DNA of 64,000 nucleotides from contig JBAQFO010000014.1 of assembly GCA_049287305.1 (NCBI GenBank), positions 128,453 to 192,452 of the forward strand, written 5' to 3'. Position 1 is the stretch's first letter; every line of letters starts with the position of its first letter. The stretch comes from Minisyncoccia bacterium. Lineage in GTDB: Bacteria; Patescibacteriota; Minisyncoccia; Phycocordibacterales; UBA9973. The notes beneath the pieces are model-generated. The model saw nothing but the letters and a program-made list of their open reading frames with translations. It searched no databases and had not been told where the DNA came from. A program made the translations under genes and the position numbers. Shown here piece by piece: positions 5,142 through 59,985 of this stretch.

Positions 5142-6152
5142 ATGAAAAATATCGTGACCGTTGGCGGAGGCACAGGAAGCTACACAGTTTTGTCGGGACT
5201 TAAGAATCTTTCAAATGTTTCTTTGGCGGCGCTTGTATCTATGTCGGACGATGGAGGCTCTACAGGAATCTTGCGAGACGAGCTTGGGGTCTTGCCGCCC
5301 GGGGACGTCAGACAGTGTTTGGTGGCGCTATCTGAACATACGGACATTGTGCGTAATCTGATGGGTTACCGCTTTGACGAAGGAACCCTGAAAGGCCATT
5401 CCTTCGGGAACATATTTTTAGCAGCCTTGGAAAAAGTGACGGGTGATTTTGCGCACGGAGTGGAAGTGGCGTCTGAAATTTTGAAAATAAAAGGAACGGT
5501 AATTCCTATCACCAAAGACAAAGCCGAGCTTTTAATGAGACTCGCGAACGGCAAAATAATAGAAGGAGAAGATAACATCCAAAACGACCAGGACATACAG
5601 AAATACGGATTAGAAAAATTATATTACAGTTCCGGGGTAACTTTGAGTGAAAAGGCTAAAGACGCAATCCTGGGAGCGGATTATATAATTCTAGGTCCGG
5701 GAAATTATTACTGCTCGGTGCTGCCTAATTTGGTGGTAGAAGGATTTACGGAAGTCATTTCCAAAACCACGGCAAAAATAATTTTTCCCGTAAACCTTAC
5801 CAACAAGTTAGAGCATACGATAAATTGGAAAGTTAGCGATTACGTGAAAGATATTGAAAAATATTTGGGTAGAAAAGTAGATGTTGTGCTGGTAAACAGT
5901 GAATTACCCACAAAGGAACAGATAGAAAAATATGAATTAAAAGAAGGAGAAGGTGTTTACGTGGAAGATGATTTTGAGGACCCGAGAGTAATTCGCGCTC
6001 CCCTTTTATCGCATGTTGTATATGTGAAGGGTGTTGGGGATGTTTTGCCAAGCACAAGAGGGTTCATCCGTCACGATTCGGAAAAAATAGCCAAGTGCGT
6101 TTATGAGATAATAAATACCCGCCTGAACGACCACTCAGTCGGGCAGGAATAA
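5142..6152 (+). CDS. YvcK/CofD-family protein (UPF0052, gluconeogenesis factor-like)
   Basis: VGGGTGSYTVLSGL...SMSDDGGSTGILRDELGVLPPGDVRQCLVAL is the family signature. Confidence 0.7.
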   Translation: MKNIVTVGGGTGSYTVLSGLKNLSNVSLAALVSMSDDGGSTGILRDELGVLPPGDVRQCLVALSEHTDIVRNLMGYRFDEGTLKGHSFGNIFLAALEKVTGDFAHGVEVASEILKIKGTVIPITKDKAELLMRLANGKIIEGEDNIQNDQDIQKYGLEKLYYSSGVTLSEKAKDAILGADYIILGPGNYYCSVLPNLVVEGFTEVISKTTAKIIFPVNLTNKLEHTINWKVSDYVKDIEKYLGRKVDVVLVNSELPTKEQIEKYELKEGEGVYVEDDFEDPRVIRAPLLSHVVYVKGVGDVLPSTRGFIRHDSEKIAKCVYEIINTRLNDHSVGQE

Positions 6153-15335: not shown

Positions 15336-15442
15336 ATCTATTCAAAATTCATCAATTTTATTATATCAAATGTAGCGAAATTAAAAAATAATGAGGACGG
15401 GTTTATCAAAAAAACAAACTTTAACTATAAAAGAAAAGTCAC

Positions 15443-15489
15443 CCGGCACAGAAGTGTCAGGGACTCTTCTCTGCTACGGGTGACGGGAT
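15443..15489 (-). terminator. Long GC hairpin plus T-run terminator after the TrxR-like gene
   Basis: GTCACCCG...CGGGTGAC perfect 8-bp inverted repeat (extended to ~19 bp with mismatches), followed by TTTTCTTTT on the minus strand. Confidence 0.6.
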
Positions 15490-15490
15490 G

Positions 15491-16537
15491 CTACTTGAGG
15501 GCGAGATAACCGTGAATGTTCTGCACGGCCATTGCGCCTTCTGCGACGGCCGAGGCGATTCGCTTGATGGAGCCGTGGCGGACATCGCCAGCGGCGAAGA
15601 CTCCTGGCATTGAAGTCTCCATAAAGAAAGGTGGACGAGGCAGCTGAGTCAGACGCCAGTGACCGGTGGGAACGTCGTTACCAGTGTAAATCTGACCTCT
15701 CTCATCCAACGCGATGCCGTCCGGAAGCCACTTGGTTTTCGCTACGCTTCCGATGGAGATGAACATCTCCTTGGCGTTCACGACTTCATTCCCCGTCGGC
15801 GAGGTGATCACCACCGACTCAAGGCGGGGGTCGCCGTGAGCCTCTTTGACTTGGGAGTTGTAGTGCATGACGATGTTTGATGCCGCCTTGATGCGCTCGA
15901 TGAGGTATGCCGACATCGTGGAGGAAAGGGCCTCGTTTCTCACCACCATGTGAACCCGGCACCCTTTCTGCTTACAGAGAAAGATGACGGCCTGCCCTGC
16001 GGAGTTTGCTCCGCCGACCACAACCACATCCCCCTCGTATGACTCATCGACTTTCGGAGAGCCATACTTCACTCCCCGTCCGATGAGCCTGGCGACACCT
16101 TCCACTTCAAGAGGACGGTAAGACACGCCGAGCGCGAGAATGACGGTGCGAGTTGGGATGATGGTCCCATCTTCCGTAGTTACGAGAAGCTTGCCGTCCG
16201 ACTGCTGAACGTTGCTGACTCGTGCTGGCACCATGAAGACGGTGCCAAACTTCTCGCACTGAGAAATCGCTCGGTCTGCCAGCTCCTTACCAGTGACTCC
16301 CGCCGGGAAACCGAGAAAGTTCTCGATTGAAGTTGATTCTGCCGCCTGTCCGCCACAACCATCCGTGCTGCGTTCCACTATCAGGGTCGTCAGCCCCTCC
16401 GATTCGGCAGTGATAGCTGCCGACATTCCTGCCAGTGAGAATCTCATTCTGCTAAAGACTGCGGACAAAGGCCGGTATTTAATAAAATGCTTACTGACAT
16501 AAGAGAAGGAAAATTCGATGGAATACTTGTCTGGCAT
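15491..16537 (-). pseudogene. GC-rich TrxR-like flavoprotein oxidoreductase (FNR/TrxR fold, no CxxC); N-terminus replaced and GxGxxG degraded
   Basis: GDVRHGSIKRIASAVAEGAMA C-terminal FAD motif and VVVVGGANSAGQ NAD motif. The N-terminal dinucleotide motif reads FSLAGMSAA instead of GxGPAG. The first ~30 codons of the tracked ORF lie in AT-rich sequence with no homology. The gene body is markedly GC-rich. Confidence 0.5.
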
Positions 16538-17566
16538 CCAGATCGCCTTGCTCGAAATGCCGGAGACCTAGGAGCGATCGTAGACCTGTTAGATCAAAAG
16601 AGATTAATAGAGATAAGAACGTATAGTCAGCACTTCACAAATAATCCGAATGAGAAGTTTCTACTAATGATTCTTGGTAGTCAGGCAAAACTAGAGAATG
16701 ATAATAAAAGTATAAATGTAAAACGTGGATTAAAAACACAAGTCGAAAATGGATTATGGCCCAGTGTTGCTCCCACTGGGTATTTAAATGCAAAAAATAA
16801 AGATCAGAAATGTCATGTATTTGTTGACCCAGACAGAGCACCAGTCATGAAAGAGATCTTTGTAAAGGTGGGACACCAAGGATGGAGTGGTAGAAAAGTT
16901 TTTAGATGGCTCAAAGATATAAAATTTGTAACACGCACAGGCAAACCACTAACTCTTAGTAATATTTATGTAATCCTGAATAACCACTTCTACTATGGAA
17001 GCTTTGAGTACCCAAAGAAAAGTGGTCGATGGTTTCAAGGTAAGCACATACCGCTAATAACAAAAGATTTATACGATGATGTTCAGAAACAATTACACTT
17101 ACAAATAAAGGCTCATGGAAGAAATAAGGAATTTGCATTTACGCGAATGCTAACCTGCGGGGCATGTGAGTCTGGGGTCAGTGCGCAAGAAAAGTATAAA
17201 ACTCTAAAAGATGGTTCGGTAAATAAATACATTTATTATGGATGTACTAGAGCCAGAGATATAAACTGTAAAGAAGGATATATTGAAGAGAAAGTATTAA
17301 TAGACCAACTACTTGGGATAGTAGATAAAATAGATTTGGACAAATCAGGGATAAAGAAAAAGCTTGAAGTAGAAATTGAACGACATAAAAAATTCCATTC
17401 AGGAATAATGGGTAAACCAAAAGAAGAATATTCAGCCAAAGATGCTGACATAAGAAATTATGCAAAATATTTACTTACCGAGGGATCAGTATTTGAAAAA
17501 AGAGATTTGCTAGGCTGTTTAAAAAGTAAAATAAACTTAAAAAATAAAGTAGTTTCAATAAGTTAA
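16487..17566 (+). pseudogene. Large serine recombinase, 5'-truncated (catalytic Ser region missing)
   Basis: Starts inside the resolvase domain (GKFDGILVWHPDRLARNAGDL), about 70 aa short of the catalytic Ser. The recombinase domain and zinc ribbon (CGACESG...YYGCTRAR) are intact. A TAA sits immediately upstream in frame. Confidence 0.65.
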
Positions 17567-19017
17567 TTTACCTCCGGCCAAAAAGTATTTATTACATCAT
17601 CACCTAAAAATTCAGCAAGTTCTCCTGATGGTTTATTTTCACCAATACATTTTGCTACTCTTAATGTCCAAGGGATGTTTTTAGGACTCAAGATTTGAGA
17701 GAGTTGTTGAATTACATCTTTCAAATCATCATCTTTACGGTTCCAAGAATCGCAAGAATCCAAAAGTGTTTGTTTGGCGCCATATTTATTACTCTCAGAT
17801 TTAATTTTTAGTTTTGCTTCATCCCAATTATTTAACCCTAGAGATGAAAGAACTTCGTTAGAAAGAAAAAGGTTTTCAGATTCTCGACACGCAAGTTTGA
17901 TAAATTTTATATTTAACTGCTGATTGCTCTCATCTGCTATTGGTAGTGATTGATCGCCATCCAAAAGAGCATACCCAACTGGATTAGATTGATCTGACCT
18001 TAGGCTAGTAAATAACTTCTCTAAAGATTTTTGATAGTTTTTTACCTCTTCAGACCCACTACAAGGGATAACTGCAAGGGGAACTTTATGATATCTTGGT
18101 ATTTGGCTCCAAATTTTATTATCATCATCTCCCTCTACTAGTAATAGTGGTGCACCAAAAAGTGGACCCATCAAAGCATGCCCCCCTAAACAAGTAGAAA
18201 GTTCTTGTAACGCTTTATTGAATTTTATTGCCTTCTGTTCTTTTATTGAATTATTTAAATAAATAACACTAGTTTTTTCTTCACCATGATAACCAAGAGC
18301 AGAGAGTAACGTAGTACTATGTGTCGCAATTACTATCTGAACTTTATATTTATCAAGTAATTTAACTAAGAAATTTGCTAAGTGTTGTTGCAAGTCTGGA
18401 TGCAAGTGTGTATCAGGTTCATCAATAAGCAAAACTCTACTGGTTTGATTTTCTAATTCCCACATAGCACAAATAGTAAGCAGATCTATTGCTAGAGTTA
18501 AAATTTCTGCTTCCCCTGTACTTAAAGCATTAACACTGGATACAATATCATCATTATGTATTCTCTTTAGTTCAAAGGGAGGATTTTGACCTGTTATAGA
18601 AAATTGGAAATCGGGTAATAATATTTGTAGAGTATCTTCAATATCTTGAACATTAACAGGGCTGGCCGCTCCTCGCGAGGTCACATTACCAATTTTAATA
18701 AACAATGCTTGAATACGAGAAATTGATTCTTGACGATAAGTAGGAGAAAGATTATTTCTCCCTCTTCCAGCTCTGCTAGGAGCGGTCAGTTGTTCCTGCA
18801 TAATCCCAACATCATGAGTAATATCACCAGCTCTTTCTGGAGAAGTGTAATGATAAGTACTTTGATCAGTATCTCTAAGGAGTCTGAGTAAGCGACTTTT
18901 TCCAGATCCATTTTTACCGAACAAAACAGTAATCTCATTTAAATCCTTGAGTTCCCATTGTTCTGCACCAAGATATCCTGGTCTTACAATATTTAAATCT
19001 GAGAAATATTTTGCCAT
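17563..19017 (-). CDS. OLD-family ATP-dependent endonuclease (ABC ATPase + Toprim)
   Basis: Walker A GKNGSGKS, ABC signature LSTGEAEIL, Walker B VLLIDEPDTHLHP, H-loop ATHS. C-terminal Toprim has LLLVEGDDDNKIW (Glu) and LLDGDQS (DxD). Confidence 0.75.
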   Translation of the reverse strand: MAKYFSDLNIVRPGYLGAEQWELKDLNEITVLFGKNGSGKSRLLRLLRDTDQSTYHYTSPERAGDITHDVGIMQEQLTAPSRAGRGRNNLSPTYRQESISRIQALFIKIGNVTSRGAASPVNVQDIEDTLQILLPDFQFSITGQNPPFELKRIHNDDIVSSVNALSTGEAEILTLAIDLLTICAMWELENQTSRVLLIDEPDTHLHPDLQQHLANFLVKLLDKYKVQIVIATHSTTLLSALGYHGEEKTSVIYLNNSIKEQKAIKFNKALQELSTCLGGHALMGPLFGAPLLLVEGDDDNKIWSQIPRYHKVPLAVIPCSGSEEVKNYQKSLEKLFTSLRSDQSNPVGYALLDGDQSLPIADESNQQLNIKFIKLACRESENLFLSNEVLSSLGLNNWDEAKLKIKSESNKYGAKQTLLDSCDSWNRKDDDLKDVIQQLSQILSPKNIPWTLRVAKCIGENKPSGELAEFLGDDVINTFWPEVN

Positions 19018-19058
19018 AATTTTAACCCGTCTAGGTCCTTCGATACTAAACTAAACTG

Positions 19059-19129
19059 CTGGGAGACTAGGAATCGAACCTAGATTAAAGGCTTCAAAGG
19101 CCTCTGTCCTACCGTTAGACGATCTCCCA
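19059..19129 (-). tRNA. tRNA-Gln(UUG)
   Basis: Manual fold of TGGGAGA TC GTCT AACGGTA GGAC A GAGGC CTTTGAA GCCTT TAAT CTAGG TTCGATT CCTAG TCTCCCA G. U1:A72 is typical of bacterial tRNA-Gln. Anticodon UUG. Confidence 0.8.
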
Positions 19130-22360: not shown

Positions 22361-23668
22361 TTATTTAATTACATCTTTCCCCATGAACTTTAGCAGGGCT
22401 TCGGGGACTTTTATGCTGCCATCCTCTTGCTGGTAGTTTTCTATTATTGCGATAAGAGTGCGGCCGATAGCCACCACGGTCGCGTCATTCATATGGACGG
22501 GTTCTATTTTCCCGTCGCTTCTCCTTACTCTGGTATTCAAACGACGAGACTGAAATCCTCCGGTGTAGTCAGAGCTATGCGTTTCTCTGTATTTATTCTG
22601 TCCGGGCATCCAGGTTTCTATATCAATCTGTCTAGTGTCAGGGAAACCCATGTCTCCGGTGCAGACTGACACCACTTGATAAGGTAGCTTTAAAGTTCTC
22701 AAAACATATTCCTGGATAGCGACCAAGAAATTTTGTTCCTGCATGGCGTTCTCAGGCAAAGAAAAAACTTCCATTTCCAGTTTATCAAACTGATGCTGGC
22801 GCAATATTCCGTTGGTATCTTTTCCCGCCGCTCCAGCCTCTCGGCGAAAGGCGGTAGAATATCCGGCATATCTTATGGGCAAATCTCTTTCTTCAAAAAT
22901 TTTATTCATGTGCATAGCGCCTAGGGTATGCTCGGCGCTTCCGATAAGCATCAAATCATCGTTCGGAAAGATATAATGCTCTTCGGGAGTCATATATCTC
23001 GCCATTTTTACCTGAACCACGGGCCTTATAAACACCGGCGGGATTACGGGCAGAAATTTGGAAGGGGTTATTGATACGTTGGCTTCTTCGGCGATTTTTT
23101 TCAGTGTTTCTTCGTTGGTTAAAAACTCCAAACACATTTGGATAAGCGCAAATTGCATCATAACCAAATCCCCCTTTAGGTAGGCGTACCTGGAACCCGA
23201 AACTTCCCCGGCAGTTTCAGTGTCAATTATCCCAAGCGCTTTTCCTATTTCGTAATGTTCTTTGGGGACAAAAGAAAACTGAGGTTTTTCTCCCCATGTT
23301 TTTACAACTTGGTTGCCGGTGTCGTCAGGGCCTTCGGGTGTATCTACGGAAGGAATGTTCGGTATCTTCAACATTATTTTTTGCCATTCCTCCATCGTAG
23401 CCTTTAGCTTTTCTTCTTTAGCTTTTATCTCATCTTTTACCACACGCATTTCCTCAATAAGCTGAATCTTGAGAGCTGAATCTTGGTTGCGTCCAATGTC
23501 ATTAGACACACGGTTTACTTCGCTGCGGAGTTCTTCAACTTCTTTTAGCTGGCTAAGGCGTTCGTCGTCCAGAGAAATTAGTTTTTCAATATCAACTTCA
23601 ACGCGCTTTTTATCCGCTCCGGCTTGCACGATATCTTTGTTTTCACGAATGAATTTTATATCCAACAT
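22361..23668 (-). CDS. serS: Seryl-tRNA synthetase
   Basis: Coiled-coil N-arm and class II motifs (FRREAGAAGKDTNGILRQHQFDKLE). Confidence 0.9.
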   Translation of the reverse strand: MLDIKFIRENKDIVQAGADKKRVEVDIEKLISLDDERLSQLKEVEELRSEVNRVSNDIGRNQDSALKIQLIEEMRVVKDEIKAKEEKLKATMEEWQKIMLKIPNIPSVDTPEGPDDTGNQVVKTWGEKPQFSFVPKEHYEIGKALGIIDTETAGEVSGSRYAYLKGDLVMMQFALIQMCLEFLTNEETLKKIAEEANVSITPSKFLPVIPPVFIRPVVQVKMARYMTPEEHYIFPNDDLMLIGSAEHTLGAMHMNKIFEERDLPIRYAGYSTAFRREAGAAGKDTNGILRQHQFDKLEMEVFSLPENAMQEQNFLVAIQEYVLRTLKLPYQVVSVCTGDMGFPDTRQIDIETWMPGQNKYRETHSSDYTGGFQSRRLNTRVRRSDGKIEPVHMNDATVVAIGRTLIAIIENYQQEDGSIKVPEALLKFMGKDVIK

Positions 23669-23716
23669 ATGTATATATTCTATATCAAAGCTGGTATAAT
23701 TACAAAGTTGATATTT

Positions 23717-24583
23717 ATGCAGATTAACAAACTGCCAAAAAATAAATTTCCAAAGGCTCTCTTAGAAATTCCCCAACCTCCGGAGAATCTTTGGGTTAAA
23801 GGCGAAATGCCTTCTGAAGACTTAATACATTTATGCGTTGTCGGCTCCCGTAAAAACACAAGTTACGGAAGAGATTGCTGTGAAAAAATAATCGCCGGAT
23901 TGAAAGGTTACCCCATAGTGATAGTATCAGGCTTGGCAATGGGGATAGATGCGATAGCCCACAAGAAAGCTTTATCGGTGGGGCTCAAAGCGCTAGTCTT
24001 TCCTGGTTCAGGATTATCACCTGAAGCAATGTATCCCAAAACAAACGTCCTGCTTGCGAATGAAATACTGGAAGCGGGCGGATGTTTAATATCGGAATTT
24101 GACCCCGACTTTAAAGCAACTCTTTGGAGTTTCGCTAAACGAAATAGATTAATGGCTGGAATTTCTAAAGCAGTTCTTATTATAGAAGCGGAAGAAAGGT
24201 CGGGCACGCTCATAACCGCGCGACTGACTACGGAATACAATAGAGATCTATTGGCTGTCCCAGGCTCAATTTTTTCTCCCAACTCTGTCGGTACAAACAA
24301 GCTTATCCGCCAAGGCGCTACCCCCGTCACCTGTGCCAACGACGTCCTGGAAGCCTTAGGATTTGAAATTCCCAAAAGCGAAGAAAAGCAAGCAAAGCTG
24401 TTTTTGGATTTGCTACCGGAAGAAAAAATGGTAGTAGACATTTTAAAAGAGCCTCTGCCTCGCGATGAGCTTATAAGGGCAATGAAAATGTCCGTGCCTA
24501 ACGCCAATGCCCTAATATCGGTGATGGAAATCAAGGGATTAATAAAAGAAGAAGTGGGTGAAATTAAAATTGATTTCAGGTAA
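23717..24583 (+). CDS. dprA: DNA-processing protein DprA (Smf)
   Basis: VVGSRKNTSYG...IVSGLAMGIDAIAHKKAL Rossmann motif. The start is moved to MQINKL, because the first 31 codons of the tracked ORF overlap the serS promoter region. Confidence 0.8.
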   Translation: MQINKLPKNKFPKALLEIPQPPENLWVKGEMPSEDLIHLCVVGSRKNTSYGRDCCEKIIAGLKGYPIVIVSGLAMGIDAIAHKKALSVGLKALVFPGSGLSPEAMYPKTNVLLANEILEAGGCLISEFDPDFKATLWSFAKRNRLMAGISKAVLIIEAEERSGTLITARLTTEYNRDLLAVPGSIFSPNSVGTNKLIRQGATPVTCANDVLEALGFEIPKSEEKQAKLFLDLLPEEKMVVDILKEPLPRDELIRAMKMSVPNANALISVMEIKGLIKEEVGEIKIDFR

Positions 24584-26861: not shown

Positions 26862-26912
26862 AGCCGGCACTCACATTACTCCTTTCGGATGTGGCCGGCT
26901 ACTCGAGAGTTG
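26862..26912. terminator. Bidirectional terminator
   Basis: TAGCCGGC(AC)...GCCGGCTA 8-bp perfect stem with inner CACAT/ATGTG, followed by a T-run on the minus strand. Confidence 0.55.
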
Positions 26913-26991
26913 GAAGGTCTCTCACCTGATAGTGCTAGAAATGTCTAGCGGCATTGCCTGGTTTTAGTTCGCGCCAGGCTTGCGGGTGCGT

Positions 26992-27816
26992 TTATGGAAT
27001 CGGAGTAGTTGTCACACCCCGCGAAGGATTGTAGCGATACAGATACGTATCACATCTTCCTCCACCGTCCACGATGGTGACGAGGTTGTCTCCTTCGTAG
27101 ATGATGCCCTCCCCGTTATCAGGGTTGTAGAGCTCAACCTCCATTCCCTCAGGCGTTCGAGTGATGGATTCGTCCGAGAGGGCATAAAAGTTGACGAGAA
27201 CCCGAGCATCACCACTCTCTGTGATGACCTTCATGCGGTTGCTCACTTGCACTTCATTGATTCCGAAAGAAGGCGAGCCGTAGAAGTTCATGTCAGAGGA
27301 CAGGGTCACCATCTCCTCTCTCTCGGGGTCGAATACTCGAAGGAAAAGCGTCGGCGCTCCCTCCAGAGTCAGCATCGGTGGGATTTCGCCATACCAGAAC
27401 GAGATGAACCAGTCTCCCTCTTCTTCCACGGAGAAGGCGCCGGTATTGAAACGTTTCCCGGTCGGGTATTCAAGAATCGGGACTACCACCGAGAATCGGT
27501 GCAGGTGGCCTACGAAGGAAAGCACCTTGTAGGCGCTGTCCTTGACGATAGCGCCGTCGAACTCGGGGTCAGCTGAGGGATTGTGATTCGTCGACGCGAC
27601 GTTGCGTCGTGAACCTTCCTCACCCATGATGCGATTGATGAGCGCGTGGTCGTGAACGAGCCGGGTTCCGCTGCCGGGCTTGCCGATTTCGGACGTGGTG
27701 ACCTTTCTGACGCCGGTCGGGAGCTTGCGCTCCTGGCCCGACACGACGAAGGTCGCGAACGAGAAAACGACGGTCATGATGACGAGGAGCGCAGTGATGA
27801 GGTTACGGAGTTTCAT
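26992..27816 (-). CDS. Hypothetical secreted/membrane-anchored protein, GC-rich gene
   Basis: N-terminal hydrophobic anchor LITALLVIMTVVFSFATFVVS. 274 aa with no recognisable domain. 60-nt samples at 27001-27120 counted 50-57% GC. Confidence 0.5.
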   Translation of the reverse strand: MKLRNLITALLVIMTVVFSFATFVVSGQERKLPTGVRKVTTSEIGKPGSGTRLVHDHALINRIMGEEGSRRNVASTNHNPSADPEFDGAIVKDSAYKVLSFVGHLHRFSVVVPILEYPTGKRFNTGAFSVEEEGDWFISFWYGEIPPMLTLEGAPTLFLRVFDPEREEMVTLSSDMNFYGSPSFGINEVQVSNRMKVITESGDARVLVNFYALSDESITRTPEGMEVELYNPDNGEGIIYEGDNLVTIVDGGGRCDTYLYRYNPSRGVTTTPIP

Positions 27817-27935
27817 TGAATCCTCTTTCTTTCAGCCTGCCTTTCGGCCTCCGGCTGTCCTGTGATATAACAACACATTTTCACGGAAAAAGCAAGTTTT
27901 TCCGTACTGCGACAAAAAATGCTACAATCACATTT

Positions 27936-48055: not shown

Positions 48056-48099
48056 TTTTCAGCACATATGCTATCTTCGTAGTGAAAGGAGCTCTTCGT

Positions 48100-48255
48100 A
48101 TGAGCGTAGTCGAGGGCAAAACTCCCGTCGAGAACGACAATGCGCACTGGGAAGGCGCAGCAGACGAACCCCACACCCCAACTGCATCAACAACACCTCT
48201 TTTTGAGTGGCCTTATCCCGACGAGGGCCACGGGGAGGAAGCTCACGAAAAGTGA
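48100..48255 (+). CDS. Small acidic protein (51 aa) in a GC-rich island
   Basis: AAAGGAG Shine-Dalgarno 8 nt upstream. MSVVEGKTPVENDNAHWEGAADEPHTPTASTTPLFEWPYPDEGHGEEAHEK. Confidence 0.4.
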   Translation: MSVVEGKTPVENDNAHWEGAADEPHTPTASTTPLFEWPYPDEGHGEEAHEK

Positions 48256-48269
48256 GGAAGGAGCCGGAA

Positions 48270-48452
48270 ATGGCCAACGAAGAATGGTCAGACGCCAACA
48301 TTGGAGGATGTTGTAGCGGAACAGGCCCCGGAGGGCAGTCCATCGCCGACACCTCCGATTCCAACGACCCGAACGACCCCGTCGTCGTCACCAGCGACGG
48401 ATCTCGAATCCACACCAACGTTCGGAGTCCCGATGAATTGGTGGGAAAGTAA
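48270..48452 (+). CDS. Small acidic protein (60 aa) with GGCCSGTGPGG motif in a GC-rich island
   Basis: GGAAGGAG SD 6 nt upstream. MANEEWSDANIGGCCSGTGPGGQSIADTSDSNDPNDPVVVTSDGSRIHTNVRSPDELVGK. The tracked 81-aa ORF begins further upstream, but this ATG is the SD-supported one. Confidence 0.4.
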   Translation: MANEEWSDANIGGCCSGTGPGGQSIADTSDSNDPNDPVVVTSDGSRIHTNVRSPDELVGK

Positions 48453-48456
48453 TCCA

Positions 48457-48497
48457 CCGCCTGAAGAGAAGCGACCGCGCTCTCACAGGCGGTTTCT
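48457..48497. terminator. Hairpin plus T-run terminator
   Basis: CCGCCTG...CAGGCGG 7-bp stem followed by TTTCTCTTTTT. Confidence 0.5.
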
Positions 48498-48501
48498 CTT
48501 T

Positions 48502-49173
48502 TTAGGCAACTATAACCGTAAACTCCCCTCTTTGTTTTTCTTTATTGTTTACAAAATATTCCAAAACTTCGGTCGGTGTTCCGGTTTTAAATTCCTCATA
48601 AATTTTAGTAAGTTCACGCGCCACGCAAACTTTTTTATCAGGGCAAAATTTCACCAAGGATTCAAGAGTTTTTAAAATTCTATGAGGTGATTCGTAAAAC
48701 GCCATTGTTCTCTTGGATTCCGCAATTTCTTTAAATAATGTTTCTCGGCCTTTTTTGTGAGGGAGAAAGCCCAAGAAAGTAAATTCATGAGTTGGAAGTC
48801 CCGAACCCGAAAGCGCGGTAATAAGAGCGGTGGCTCCGGGAATTGGAGTCACCTCTATTTCGGGAAGATTTTCTTTTATTTTAGAAACTAGCAATGCTCC
48901 CGGGTCGGAAATTCCCGGCGTTCCAGCATCGGAAACAAGCGCCAGATTTTTCCCCTCTCGCAGAAGCTCAAAAATTTTATCGGTTTTCCCCAGCTTACTC
49001 TGAGCGTGATAGCTCATGGTCGGCTTCTTGATATCAAATTTATCCAAAATCTTTTTGGTTTCTCGGGTATCTTCACACAATATCACGTCAACACTTTTAA
49101 GTGTTTCTATAGCTCGGAGTGTGATGTCACCCATATTCCCGATTGGCGTGGCTACAATGTAAAATTTAGTCAT
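48502..49173 (-). CDS. rsmI: 16S rRNA (cytidine1402-2'-O)-methyltransferase
   Basis: YIVATPIGNMGDIT...ILCEDTR motif. Confidence 0.85.
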   Translation of the reverse strand: MTKFYIVATPIGNMGDITLRAIETLKSVDVILCEDTRETKKILDKFDIKKPTMSYHAQSKLGKTDKIFELLREGKNLALVSDAGTPGISDPGALLVSKIKENLPEIEVTPIPGATALITALSGSGLPTHEFTFLGFLPHKKGRETLFKEIAESKRTMAFYESPHRILKTLESLVKFCPDKKVCVARELTKIYEEFKTGTPTEVLEYFVNNKEKQRGEFTVIVA

Positions 49174-57318: not shown

Positions 57319-57633
57319 TTAGTATTCTCTTCGTCCTCCACCACCGTATCCACCGTTTCCTCCACTAGATCGTGGGGGTCGAGCTTCCATAGGGCGAGCT
57401 TCATTGACTGTAAGTTTGCGTCCTTCGAAATCTTGGTCGTTGAACATAGAGATAGCTTTCGCTGCTTCATCCTGAGATGACATTTCTACGAATCCAAAAC
57501 CCTTTGAACGACCAGACATTTTGTCCATGATAATCACAGCAGAAACAACGTTTCCAGCTTGTGCGAAGAGGTCCCTAAGGGCGTCTTCTTGAGTGCTGTA
57601 AGGGAGTCCCCCTACATATAGCTTTGTAGCCAT
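57319..57633 (-). CDS. RRM-type RNA-binding protein with Gly-rich tail
   Basis: RNP1 KGFGFVEM and RNP2 LYVGGL. The tail is SSGGNGGYGGGGRREY. Confidence 0.85.
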   Translation of the reverse strand: MATKLYVGGLPYSTQEDALRDLFAQAGNVVSAVIIMDKMSGRSKGFGFVEMSSQDEAAKAISMFNDQDFEGRKLTVNEARPMEARPPRSSGGNGGYGGGGRREY

Positions 57634-57790
57634 ACTTTTATACTTCTCCCGTTTTTGAAAAATCGGGCAAAAACTATTTAATAAACCTGCTACAAAGAGT
57701 AATCTTTCTAGCCGGCGTAGAAACTCTTTTTCGCTAAATGAGGCCTACAAAAAAATAATACCATATAAAAAATAAAATGCAATCGGCAGA

Positions 57791-57847
57791 AAACTTTTTC
57801 GTCCTTTTGGACTCATCAGGCAAGACACACATCTTGCGAAAGCCCGG
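57791..57847 (-). ncRNA. Candidate type-III hammerhead ribozyme
   Basis: Minus-strand RNA GGGCUUU C^ GCAAGA-UGUGUG-UCUUGC CUGAUGA GUCC-AAAA-GGAC GAAA AAGUUUU. It has NUH = UUC at the cleavage site, stem I of 6 bp, core CUGAUGA, stem II GUCC/GGAC (G10.1:C11.1), core GAAA, and an open stem III AAAGUUU/GGGCUUU. Confidence 0.45.
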
Positions 57848-57958
57848 ACAGAATGATGCTGTCCGACCTGGAGGAACTCCAGGATTTTGATGTTGGCCGG
57901 CTGACGCGCGGCCTGACGATTCCTGTTTTAGTGGCGAAGGAACATTTCGCGTGGAGGG

Positions 57959-58453
57959 TCAGTGGCGGCGAGGAGGAAGCGTGATAATGCTGAATTCGAA
58001 ACTGTGGACTGGATTCGAATCCTCCTGTGGATGCCGACAGAGACAGTTCGGACAGATCGGGTCCGTCGTCGCGAGCTTCCAGTTGGCGCGAAGGACGAGT
58101 CCTTCGGTACCAAAGAGGTCGAACTCTGCTTGGACCGCCGACCAGAAGAAGCTGGTGGCCGCCTGAAGCTGGCCGGCGATCTTGTTCGTCCGGCTCGCGA
58201 GTTCGTGCATTTCCTCCGGCATCATCTGGTTGAGGTCGTCGAAGGTGAGTCGCTGAACCTTGGCGACTTCAGCGTTGCGCTGCTCTGTCAGCCGGCAGAT
58301 GAGCGCCCAAAGCTTCTGGAGCTCTTCCGAAAGAATGCCGGCCTCCTCCTCGCCCGCGTACGTGCGGATCAGTTTGAGGCGGTCTCCAGCGATGGCAACC
58401 TCATCTGGCGTGACGGTGGCGAGATGTTCCAGGAGTCTTTCGATCAGTTTCAA
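57959..58453 (-). CDS. Hypothetical soluble protein, GC-rich gene, probable TTG start
   Basis: AGGAGA SD 6 nt before the TTG. 164 aa with a CPNCLC motif near the C-terminus. The antisense 173-aa ORF is Arg-rich and was rejected. Confidence 0.45.
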   Translation of the reverse strand: MKLIERLLEHLATVTPDEVAIAGDRLKLIRTYAGEEEAGILSEELQKLWALICRLTEQRNAEVAKVQRLTFDDLNQMMPEEMHELASRTNKIAGQLQAATSFFWSAVQAEFDLFGTEGLVLRANWKLATTDPICPNCLCRHPQEDSNPVHSFEFSIITLPPRRH

Positions 58454-58565
58454 GGTGATTCTCCTATTCTGCTATTAAACTAACCTTATTGAATTAGCCA
58501 CAGCTTCAAAAAAATAAAAAATTATTACTCTCTTGAAACTATGGCTAAAATGTAAAGAACGCTAC

Positions 58566-58626
58566 ATACTCTGGCATTATAGCACACTTTATACCAGTTT
58601 GTCAAGTAAAAAACCCTTACTAATCA
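58566..58626 (-). promoter_or_regulatory. Repeat module copy A: terminator hairpin (of the DUF805 gene) plus TTGACA-N18-TATAAT promoter facing 57959..58453
   Basis: Minus strand reads AACCTTGATTAGTAAGGGTTTTTT then TTGACAaactggtataaagtgtgcTATAAT. About 85% identical to copy B at 59897..59955. Confidence 0.55.
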
Positions 58627-58680
58627 AGGTTTTTTACTGCGCATGTAATAATAGTTTTACAAATTTATTATTTATGATAT

Positions 58681-59106
58681 TTACGCAACGGGAGCAACAG
58701 CAGGAGGAGTAGGCGCTGCTGGCATTCCCTTTGGGTTTTGGCCGTATTTGTTGTCTCCGGCATCCGAATCTCGGCACAAGAACACCAAAAGAACTATCCA
58801 TCCTACTATGGGAATAAGCCACATAAACCACCACCAACCGCTGTGGTTAGTATCGTGCAATCTTCTGATAGTCACGGCGATAGAAGGCACCAACACAGCC
58901 AAAGAGTAAAGAGATGTCAGCACGCCTGTTTCGTAAGTAAATGCTCCCATGTTTTTTGTAATGTTCAAACCCGTAACAGATTCAACAATGGATAAACCAA
59001 TGCTGATAAGAAAGTTGAAGAGCACGAACATCCAAAACTCTCGTCTCCTTGACCTGCCGTCAAACATCGCGTATTTTTTAAAAACAACCGTTTTAAATTC
59101 TTCCAT
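58681..59106 (-). CDS. DUF805-family inner-membrane protein
   Basis: RRLHDTNHSGWWWFMWLIPIVGWIVLLVFL signature. Confidence 0.6.
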   Translation of the reverse strand: MEEFKTVVFKKYAMFDGRSRRREFWMFVLFNFLISIGLSIVESVTGLNITKNMGAFTYETGVLTSLYSLAVLVPSIAVTIRRLHDTNHSGWWWFMWLIPIVGWIVLLVFLCRDSDAGDNKYGQNPKGMPAAPTPPAVAPVA

Positions 59107-59272
59107 GTTTATAATATTTGTTATGAATAATTAATACACACGAATTATACAATATTCAATAAAAATTAGTAAAGGCCATTCAACGTTTGAAGAATGGCCT
59201 CTGATTGTCTGCTCACGCGAGACCTACGGTCCTTATTTTTTTGCGCGGGGGAAACTTCCCGCTTCGTCATCG

Positions 59273-59875
59273 TCAGAGAATTTCTTTCAGTCGGACAAGC
59301 CGGCTCAGGAAAACACTGACGGCGTTGAGACTCACCCATCCGAGCCAGACATGGACCAGCTCCATCTCCGGCCGGTGTCGCCAGAACATCGGCAACACCG
59401 CTTCCCACGTCAGAAACAAGACGTATGGGAAGACGACGAAGAGGATGATCAGATTACCCAACTGCCTGAGTGGCGGAATACTGGTCAGAAGCCAGAATCC
59501 AACGCAGGCCAGAAGAGCAACCTTGGCGCCGTCGGGAACGTGGTACCACGCGTAGTTGTTCCGTAGCCACGCTCCGACGCACAGCGCAGCGAAGACGATG
59601 AAGATCAATACGACGTGGTTGAATCGAACCCCTCCCGCAGCGCGAGCGACGAGCCGCTTGCCCGTTTCCGCCATCGTCGGGAAACTCCTGACGAGTAAGT
59701 AGACGAGGTATACGAGAAGAACTGCCTTCATGTGCAACCGTGGAAGATACGAGTAGCTGTTCCACAGAAGCATTATGAAGACGAGAACCAAGAACTTCAC
59801 GACCCATGTCATGAACTTCTCGAATGTCGTCAACCCCATGAACTTGAAAATGTACTTCGCGAACTCTCCAAACAT
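59273..59875 (-). CDS. Hypothetical polytopic membrane protein, GC-rich gene
   Basis: AGGAGG SD 8 nt before the ATG (MFGEFAKY...). Roughly five hydrophobic helices. The tracked ORF start at 59926 is the TTG of the promoter -35 box. Confidence 0.5.
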   Translation of the reverse strand: MFGEFAKYIFKFMGLTTFEKFMTWVVKFLVLVFIMLLWNSYSYLPRLHMKAVLLVYLVYLLVRSFPTMAETGKRLVARAAGGVRFNHVVLIFIVFAALCVGAWLRNNYAWYHVPDGAKVALLACVGFWLLTSIPPLRQLGNLIILFVVFPYVLFLTWEAVLPMFWRHRPEMELVHVWLGWVSLNAVSVFLSRLVRLKEIL

Positions 59876-59896
59876 CGGTGAATCCTCCTGCCGCAT

Positions 59897-59955
59897 ATTA
59901 TAGCACACTTTATCCCATTTTGTCAAATAAAAAACCCTTTATTCTTAAGGGTCTT
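59897..59955 (-). promoter_or_regulatory. Repeat module copy B: TTGACA-N18-TATAAT promoter abutting the SD of 59273..59875, plus an upstream hairpin and T-run (probable prfA terminator)
   Basis: Minus strand reads ACCCTTAAGAATAAAGGGTTTTTT then TTGACAaaatgggataaagtgtgcTATAATatgcggcAGGAGGattcaccgATG. Confidence 0.55.
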
Positions 59956-59985
59956 TTACCTTCTGTGTTGAAAAAATTTCTTGTT

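Follow-up and report, generated by a model that had tools for sequence, protein, structure and literature searches.

A 64,000-nt stretch of contig JBAQFO010000014.1 (GCA_049287305.1), hereafter the window, carries five short GC-rich islands (numbered 1 to 5 by position) in an AT-rich backbone. The explanation we favor, to which we give about an even chance, is that they belong to a GC-rich pool of mostly orphan, fast-evolving genes that has persisted while circulating among related low-GC genomes of the candidate phyla radiation (CPR), and that each is an autonomous accessory cassette lodged in a recombination-prone slot. Exact look-ups placed the contig in a metagenome-assembled genome (MAG) of Minisyncoccia (CPR/Patescibacteria), and the genome carrying the window is that of a Minisyncoccia/Paceibacteria-type CPR bacterium. 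The islands are discrete insertions of deviant composition with expression signals and orphan status, and their homologues in other low-GC genomes are repeatedly GC-rich, in some cases at the same slot. A first-pass annotation of the window had instead read the islands as repeated horizontal acquisitions from high-GC donors, for example the host of an epibiont.

Composition and coding capacity of the islands

The mean GC content is 42.0% for the whole window and 41.1% outside the five segments, and the GC contents of the segments are 0.568, 0.552, 0.569, 0.585, and 0.537 for islands 1 to 5, respectively. The first-pass description of five GC-rich segments in an AT-rich backbone was therefore accurate (54-58% against 41%), and it extends to the gene level. 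The backbone set of 60 open reading frames (ORFs), obtained with a simple non-overlapping ORF call, has a GC content of 0.415 ± 0.036 (maximum 0.482) and a third-position GC content (GC3) of 0.397 ± 0.061 (maximum 0.535), whereas the island ORFs have GC contents of 0.54-0.59 (z = 3.5-4.9 against the backbone) and GC3 values of 0.56-0.73 (z = 2.6-5.5) and are the sole GC-rich outliers among the ~65 genes of the window. The islands also deviate at all three codon positions and in codon choice. By base composition and codon usage they classify as compositional islands, and their relative synonymous codon usage correlates negatively with that of the backbone. All five lie between housekeeping genes; the first-pass annotation had described the flanks as typical host genes.

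Islands 1, 2, 4, and 5 are protein-coding. Their coding frames, all on the minus strand, were identified by the order GC3 > GC1 > GC2, and the chance of such ORF lengths at island GC is P = 3e-5 to 5e-3; membrane helices, family conservation, and a confident fold support the assignment as well. The GC and GC3 values are 0.57 and 0.665 for the island 1 ORF, 0.59 and 0.73 for the island 4 coding sequence (CDS), and 0.54 and 0.73 for that of island 5, which encodes an orphan protein of 200 aa with ~5 transmembrane-like segments. The island 2 CDS has a GC content of 0.558 with GC1/2/3 of 0.56/0.41/0.69, and the probability of its lacking a stop by chance is 3e-5. The claim that each island holds one ORF or two mini-ORFs with Shine-Dalgarno (SD) sites was correct, with the qualifications that the island 1 ORF is 5'-truncated and that the two mini-ORFs of island 3 are too short for coding to be proven.

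Islands 2-5 occupy variable slots in related genomes

We recovered the syntenic regions of related CPR genomes by an AtpG scan and compared the slots in which the islands lie. The prfA/RRM slot of islands 4 and 5 is empty in L011 and L017, where the prfA stop is followed immediately by the promoter of the RRM gene and the whole block from 57791 to 59985 is missing, and it is filled by other AT-rich genes in L010 and L027. The rsmI/priA slot of island 3 is empty in L011, holds an AT-rich gene in L010, and holds other small GC-rich ORFs in L013 and L017. The TopA/RelA slot of island 2 is empty in the 196 kb P0015 contig, in which RelA and TopA are 25 bp apart. Because the sister slots are either empty or otherwise filled, islands 2-5 are accessory insertions at recurrent variable slots, and the presence/absence pattern that the first-pass annotation proposed to look for in sister genomes is thus found for these four. 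No end repeats, att sites, or target duplications were common to the islands, except for a terminator-promoter module shared by islands 4 and 5. Of the five, only island 1 adjoins a (truncated) serine integrase gene, near a tRNA-Gln gene.

Single GC-rich orphan genes (GC 0.51-0.61) amid AT-rich genes also occur at other CPR loci, with 4-6 of them per 7-21 kb locus. They form runs or scatters at L009 (1-21000), L007 (4000-12000), L060 (4700-18900), and L090 (3990-7006). In a sample of ten GC-rich genes at other CPR loci, nine have no Pfam domain and several have membrane or lipoprotein signals.

Relatives of the island proteins and the search for a donor

No homologue of the island 2 and island 5 proteins was found among 5.8 billion proteins, which included the Logan assemblies of the same sequencing runs. 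For both islands, tblastn searches against INPHARED (phage) and PLSDB (plasmid) were empty, as was a scan of IMG/VR viral contigs for island 2. Among the island proteins, none but the island 1 reductase matches Pfam, PHROGs, or PADLOC. With PHROG, PADLOC, IMG/VR, INPHARED, and PLSDB all negative, we rejected a phage or plasmid origin of the orphan island proteins.

The closest relatives of the island 1 reductase are proteins of ~325 aa with 57-72% identity in other low-GC genomes. In L007, L009, and L173, the genes of these relatives have GC contents of 0.55-0.57 and GC3 values of 0.61-0.69 in backbones of 0.37-0.47. The reductase gene sits in four differing contexts, one of which, known as protein order only, is the P0015 contig; the neighbors are typical CPR genes in L007 and L009, and the P0015 contig has the gene order of the window. 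Between L007 and L009 the gene is syntenic, and its divergence (59%) is like that of its housekeeping neighbors (55-85%). More distant relatives (40-46% identity) belong to soil bacteria of 0.60-0.70 GC, where the gene GC matches the respective backbone; a metagenome scan with the reductase returned only such high-GC soil relatives and no further members of the low-GC clade. The homologue in the low-GC genome L093 has a GC3 of 0.33. The high GC content is not intrinsic to the family, because the non-CPR relatives match their own genomes and the L093 copy is low.

For island 4, an exhaustive HMMER search recovered 27 distant relatives with 24-42% identity in which the FFW and DPxCxxCGxRH motifs are kept. 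We compared GC contents for the window and four further members with contigs. The window copy (gene GC 0.59, backbone 0.415) lies between the DUF805 and RRM genes downstream of prfA. The L090 copy (0.56, backbone 0.44-0.49) is also downstream of prfA and has a homologous promoter and leader, and the L174 copy (0.52, flanking bins 0.24-0.38) immediately precedes the same RRM gene with its leader. The L091 copy (0.55) has flanking genes of 0.33-0.36, and the L092 copy (0.44, surroundings ~0.45) is not an outlier.

The closest homologues of islands 1 and 4 are thus in low-GC genomes and not in a high-GC cellular donor, and the protein searches identified no donor lineage. Of the claim of repeated acquisition from a high-GC donor or host, the discrete insertions, their absence from sister slots, and a composition like that of ~55-60% GC stand, and the donor itself does not, as none was found and the relatives are in low-GC genomes. 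Close low-GC homologues in relatives would have marked the islands as native; the sole candidate is the L092 copy (0.44 GC), which belongs to the family only distantly.

Persistence of the high GC content

Copies agree in the third base at a fraction of 0.29-0.37 of their conserved four-fold sites, where 0.25-0.29 would be expected at saturation, and most housekeeping neighbors are likewise near four-fold saturation. The four-fold G+C is 0.50-0.65 for the reductase and 0.60-0.88 for the island 4 family; the housekeeping comparators span 0.15-0.63, and the syntenic neighbors of the reductase in L007 and L009 span 0.15-0.40. The island 4 copies are about equally distant from each other (29-40% identity), although PrfA of the window and of L090 are 91% identical, and the non-coding leader of island 4 (65% identity between the window and L090) is better conserved than the CDS. 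The equal distances and the better-kept leader fit allele or cassette exchange, or diversifying selection. The four-fold saturation, the persistently high GC, and the divergence of island 4 together mean that a single recent, un-ameliorated import does not explain the islands. Repeated exchange from a GC-rich pool via conserved flanks and active maintenance of GC would both account for the persistence.

Codon choice in the islands follows a shared dialect that favors CTC, GTC, ATC, AAG, CAG, and CGN. Correlations of this dialect are r = 0.39-0.75 between islands, 0.80-0.86 with the GC-rich genes of L007, L009, and L090, and negative with the backbone. We tried to derive the type of donor from this dialect and gave it up as not discriminating, since generic high-GC genomes reach r = 0.7-0.85 and higher-GC CPR genomes reach ~0.7. 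The island proteins contain less Lys (3.7 vs. 9.1% in the backbone) and Ile (5.2 vs. 8.1%), and Val, Arg, Pro, and Trp are raised. This shift reaches non-synonymous sites and therefore argues against pure translational selection. By codon positions, codon choice, and amino acids, we estimate that the islands correspond to a gene pool of roughly 55-60% GC and not to this genome. The usage of GGA (Gly) and CGA (Arg) is backbone-like, a weak hint of long residence.

Weighing the explanations

In the explanation we favor, each island would be a small, self-contained accessory cassette in an intergenic slot between conserved housekeeping genes. The slots would be recombination-prone variable positions that in relatives are empty or hold AT-rich genes or unrelated GC-rich orphan genes. 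The pool (~0.52-0.61 GC) would consist of fast-evolving, mostly orphan, often membrane or secreted proteins common to related low-GC CPR genomes. Exchange would proceed by DNA uptake, DprA being encoded in the window, and by recombination through conserved flanks (promoter/leader, 3' element, neighboring core genes) or mobile elements (the integrase and tRNA gene of island 1). Fast turnover, or a strong force on composition, would keep the coding sequences from drifting toward the AT-rich backbone. That there is a common pool, how its members are exchanged, and what they do are inferences from the observations above; for a role at the surface or in interactions, the membrane features and the rapid divergence are no more than a hint. 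Several observations weigh against this explanation. Only two of the five islands (1 and 4) have detectable relatives, so for islands 2, 3, and 5 the model draws solely on shared composition and codon dialect, and the correlation in codon dialect is largely a matter of GC3, generic high-GC genomes giving similar values. No reservoir of ~57% GC, whether element or organism, was found, the viral, phage, and plasmid searches being empty for the proteins tested, and no recombination site or flanking repeat is common to the islands. Promoters and leaders look native and are AT-rich, which long residence fits better than repeated import does. The family member in L092 has backbone-like GC, and the pattern is patchy, with no GC-rich genes at most related loci around the ATP synthase operon.

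An assembly or binning artefact, in which fragments of a high-GC organism were spliced into the CPR contig, has almost no probability in our estimate. The sequencing runs SRR28062879 and SRR28062869 yielded Logan contigs that are 100% identical to the window. One of them (L006, 57610-60855) contains islands 4 and 5 together with both flanks, and three others (L001, 26913-30384; L002, 15432-19086; L003, 16064-17618) extend across the right-hand junctions of islands 1 and 2, with support from one or two runs. The left junctions of these two islands coincide with Logan contig ends (in two runs for island 1, where L004 and L005 terminate at 15458), and these breaks are what speaks for an artefact. 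Identical island proteins were found in two NCBI MAGs (locus tags WAV15_ and WA095_) as well as in the Logan assemblies of the two runs, the island edges fall on SD sites, start and stop codons, promoters, and terminators, and unrelated assemblies have homologous cassettes in the same slot, which makes a chimera very unlikely. The argument of the first-pass annotation that an end-to-end chimeric join cannot explain all five islands is supported by the independent assemblies. A small probability, larger than that of an artefact, goes to the idea that part of the GC-rich sequence, especially island 3, is non-coding (a structured RNA or the remnant of an element), with ORFs present because GC-rich DNA has few stops. 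The island 3 mini-ORFs are short (probability of no stop 0.13-0.18) and have no clear GC3 > GC1 > GC2 order, the region has an RNA fold z-score of -3.3 on the plus strand, and part of the GC-rich tract of island 4 is indeed non-coding structured RNA. Against this idea, Rfam has no match in island 3, the SD sites of both mini-ORFs are correctly spaced, the second mini-ORF is annotated by NCBI, and the other four islands are coding on the evidence given above.

Two further explanations concern the origin of the high GC, and we consider each of them unlikely, though distinctly less so than the two above. One is recent, independent transfer straight from a high-GC cellular donor, such as the host of the epibiont, with the GC not yet ameliorated. 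All codon positions and the amino acids resemble a genome of ~57% GC by our estimate, the islands are missing from sister genomes, the reductase relatives beyond the low-GC clade are those of high-GC soil bacteria, island 1 lies by an integrase and a tRNA gene, and DprA is present. Set against these points, islands 2 and 5 have no donor homologue even in the assemblies of the same runs, the nearest relatives of islands 1 and 4 are GC-rich in low-GC genomes, some in the same slot and with saturated synonymous sites, and the regulatory regions are AT-rich and conserved between CPR genomes. The other is that the islands are native, vertically inherited, lineage-specific genes whose CDS GC is kept by selection (for example on mRNA stability or structure, through a special translation regime, or by avoidance of an A/U-specific nuclease) or by GC-biased gene conversion at loci prone to recombination. 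The same slot with a homologous AT-rich promoter and leader and a GC-rich CDS in the window, L090, and L174 argues for it, as do the backbone-like GGA and CGA usage, the jumps in GC at CDS edges beside spacers that remain AT-rich, and the reductase of L007 and L009, which is syntenic, diverged like its neighbors, and saturated at four-fold sites, with a four-fold G+C of 0.50-0.65 against 0.15-0.40. However, the genes are missing in many close relatives, the four contexts of the reductase point to mobility, the GC shift in amino acids goes beyond translational selection, L092 and L093 show that low-GC family members are possible, and no known mechanism would act on only these genes. In a stronger form, which we likewise hold to be improbable, Paceibacteria-type CPR bacteria would possess a class of fast-evolving orphan genes that keeps GC-rich coding sequences (~0.52-0.61) far beyond synonymous saturation, in fixed slots and behind native AT-rich consensus promoters, and the GC would be actively maintained in these genes alone, through selection on DNA or mRNA or through biased gene conversion where cassettes are exchanged most, rather than a passing foreign mark.

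Relation to known systems

The islands resemble compositional genomic islets in their discrete deviation of GC and codon usage, in their absence at the sister locus, and, for island 1, in the nearby integrase and tRNA gene. They differ from them in being single genes ~15 points richer in GC than the host, four of the five having no mobility gene or flanking repeat, and in having homologues that are GC-rich in other low-GC genomes despite saturated synonymous divergence; no donor was found for them. Foreign and orphan genes are usually richer in AT than their host. Like phage morons, islands 4 and 5 are single genes of deviant composition that fit exactly between conserved genes, and each brings a strong promoter and a 3' signal of its own (a ribozyme-bearing element at island 4, hairpins at island 5); unlike them, they reside in a cellular chromosome (PrfA, ATP synthase, TopA, RelA) and not in a prophage, and PHROG and viral searches were negative for the orphan proteins searched. 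Hypervariable allelic cassettes such as O-antigen and capsule loci or immunity-gene arrays often keep an atypical GC content for long periods. The islands share with these a fixed slot, conserved flanks, and a lasting atypical composition, and the island 4 alleles are deeply divergent in close relatives (40% identity against 91% for PrfA), but the islands are single small genes and their GC deviates upward. Integron gene cassettes differ in that no attC-like boundary repeat is common to the islands and the sole recombinase is a truncated serine integrase, not IntI. The island 1 protein is similar over its full length to thioredoxin-reductase-like Pyr_redox_2 oxidoreductases (57-72% identity to stand-alone proteins of ~325 aa), except that the window copy is without the first strand and the first glycines of GxGxxG.

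Atypical GC is routinely taken as a time-limited sign of recent transfer. In both traceable families, the upward deviation is seen again in a number of low-GC genomes, which are of CPR type wherever they could be assigned; the slot is in some cases the same, and synonymous sites are saturated. If this is general, composition-based methods would mis-date these genes, and CPR genomes would hold a distinct, recognizable compartment of rapidly diversifying, often membrane-associated proteins, which would be natural candidates for host-interaction or conflict functions. If the GC is actively maintained, this would contradict the standard picture of amelioration and the AT-rich rule for orphan and foreign genes. 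The cassettes also carry compact regulatory parts, namely consensus promoters, a conserved leader, and a candidate 3' hammerhead. GC-rich orphan islets of CPR genomes were not described in any paper that full-text literature searches brought up. Patescibacteria are reported to receive most of their detected transfers from other Patescibacteria (PMC12455944), a pattern compatible with an intra-CPR pool.

Architecture of the individual islands

The features of the islands and their surroundings are listed in Table 1.

Table 1. Islands, their parts, and adjoining features, in coordinates of the window.
Feature	Position	Strand	Description
Island 1	15440-16475	-	Thioredoxin-reductase-like flavoprotein gene, 5'-truncated; CDS remnant 15491-16447, 318 aa; neighbors: aldo/keto reductase on one side, integrase on the other
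Mobile-element remnant	16487-19129	mixed	AT-rich, degenerate; integrase, OLD/AriA-like ATPase, and tRNA-Gln
Large serine integrase, N-truncated	16487-17566	+	Resolvase match only from profile position 55 of 145; PHROG_95 E = 6e-54
OLD/AriA(PARIS)/Gabija-like ATPase	17563-19017	-	PADLOC AriAB/OLD matches
tRNA-Gln	19058-19129	-	
Island 2	26866-27870	-	Orphan gene, CDS 26992-27816, 274 aa; upstream SD AAGAGGA; 3' hairpin followed by T-run at ~26866-26905; neighbors: TopA on one side, RelA on the other
Island 3	48056-48500	+	GC-rich spacer from PriA-like gene to rsmI; SD-preceded mini-ORFs 48100-48255 (51 aa) and 48270-48452 (60 aa); neighbors: PriA-like gene on one side, RsmI on the other
Candidate type III hammerhead ribozyme	57791-57845	-	Rfam RF00008; L090 copy at 5808-5862
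3' element of island 4 cassette	57791-57958	-	Conserved, GC-rich, non-coding; homologous to L090 ~5690-5865
Island 4 CDS	57959-58453	-	164-aa protein, predicted helical bundle; conserved FFW and DPxCxxCGxRH motifs; order of islands 4 and 5 and neighbors: RRM protein, island 4, DUF805, island 5, PrfA
Island 4 expression module	58454-58637	-	AT-rich; terminator hairpin of the upstream DUF805 gene, promoter 58576-58605, ~120-nt leader, SD AGGAGA
DUF805 membrane protein gene	58681-59106	-	Pfam DUF805 E = 1e-35; GC 0.446, backbone-like; part of the inserted block
Island 5 cassette	59166-59959	-	Terminator-promoter module 59897-59959, promoter 59897-59926, SD AGGAGG, CDS 59273-59875, 3' hairpins 59166-59272

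Islands 4 and 5 form, with the DUF805 gene, a block of 2.2 kb (57791-59985) between prfA and the gene for the RRM protein. Both islands are preceded by a 63-nt terminator-promoter module (58576-58637 for island 4), the two copies of which are 84% identical. The island 4 promoter, TTGACA-N18-TATAAT, matches the sigma-70 consensus at 12 of 12 positions with an extended -10 (TG), and the island 5 promoter is likewise a 12/12 TTGACA-N18-TATAAT with an extended -10. They are the only two perfect TTGACA-N16-19-TATAAT sites in the 64 kb, and in a scan of ~45 CPR loci, five of the ten perfect consensus promoters lie before GC-rich sequence. For islands 1-3, a promoter and terminator unit of their own is not evident. 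The island 4 leader (58454-58575, minus strand) corresponds to the leader at 6394-6520 of L090, upstream of P0131, with which it shares long conserved blocks. The blocks UUAGCCAUAG and CUGUGGCUAA could pair into a long hairpin. The leader has no Rfam match and may be an undescribed cis-regulatory element.

The first-pass annotation delimited a real GC-rich tract for island 4, but its interval stops inside the candidate hammerhead, and the tract continues into the conserved 3' element. Between the island 4 stop and the hammerhead, a 3' untranslated region (UTR) element of ~110 nt (57846-57958, minus strand) has a 5' part that is ~88% identical to L090 at ~5690-5807. Its middle hairpins differ between the window and L090 by changes that are apparently compensatory, as far as two sequences can tell. 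Neither copy of the hammerhead candidate reaches the gathering score of 48.5 bits: the window copy scores 37.3 (E = 1.9e-4 over the whole window) and the L090 copy 34.8. In the cmscan alignments, both copies have a complete CUGAUGA/GAAA core, a UC cleavage site, and helices I-III. The candidate is single in the window, and across 1.9 Mb of fetched loci it was found only in the window, its Logan contig L006, and L090; the exact 28-nt core pattern is absent from IMG/VR. Compared with type III hammerheads (RF00008), the candidate has the complete catalytic core, the three helices, and the UC cleavage site, all conserved in L090, and it differs in scoring below threshold and in terminating a conserved 3' UTR element (~165 nt) that follows a GC-rich CDS. 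We also considered whether the islands are known structured RNAs and rejected this, as Rfam scans at the gathering threshold and permissive scans of the window gave only four tRNAs and this one sub-threshold hammerhead.

The AlphaFold model of the island 4 protein has a mean predicted local distance difference test (pLDDT) score of 84.6, and the protein is confidently modeled as a helical bundle with a Cys/His knuckle; comparison of its fold and family returned no informative structural neighbor or family. The giant proteins P0139 (2742 aa) and P0152 (1325 aa) match the C-terminal FFW/CxxC region of the island 4 family, P0139 in eight separate stretches, so that large proteins may use the motif as a module that can be repeated.

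The island 1 protein matches Pfam Pyr_redox_2 with E = 3e-28 (99.4 bits, cut-off 26.1), the match beginning at profile position 10. In an alignment with homologues, MKNYDLxVVGGGP is missing from its N-terminus, and with it the first strand and the first glycines of the GxGxxG motif that binds FAD: where the homologues read VVGGGPAG, homology in the window begins at AGMSAA, after an unrelated RMRFSL. Island 1 is thus probably a gene remnant. The start of the adjoining integrase gene overlaps the truncated reductase ORF head-to-head, and the integrase has no catalytic N-terminal part; a single deletion that took the 5' ends of both genes would be the simplest reading. The neighboring mobile-element remnant has a GC content of 0.35 and GC3 values of 0.20-0.26, and island 1 is itself a remnant inside this element, which is decayed and elsewhere AT-rich. 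At the left junction of island 1, the Logan breaks leave a 27-nt overlap (15432-15458) inside a hairpin arm, and one contig ends at 26913, the left edge of island 2. These breaks may reflect strain-level presence/absence, alternative alleles, or a branch in the assembly graph.

The island 2 protein has a transmembrane-like segment at residues 1-29 (an N-terminal membrane or signal helix), and the remainder is predicted to be beta-rich; it has no match in Pfam, PHROG, or PADLOC. A single-sequence structure prediction was too poor (pLDDT 37.5) and was set aside. A DprA gene (23624-24583, Pfam E = 6.5e-63), which adjoins TopA and lies ~2.4 kb upstream of island 2, would fit an ability to undergo natural transformation.

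The hairpin of island 3 (~48454-48502) is the terminator of rsmI, which is conserved and has a counterpart in L017 (49 nt, 86%). We compared island 3 with the GC-rich mini-ORFs that L013 and L017 have in this slot and rejected homology, as only this terminator is in common.

The RRM RNA-binding protein gene beside island 4 (57319-57633) has a promoter and a leader of ~130 nt (57634-57790, minus strand) that are 62-66% identical in L010, L011, L017, and L174. The leader ends in a conserved hairpin, GCCCGAUUUUUCAAAAACGGG, just ahead of the SD site, which suggests that the gene is autoregulated. Elsewhere in the window, two neighboring genes at 1103-2178 have an unusually low GC3 (0.22-0.26) and are outliers in the opposite direction.

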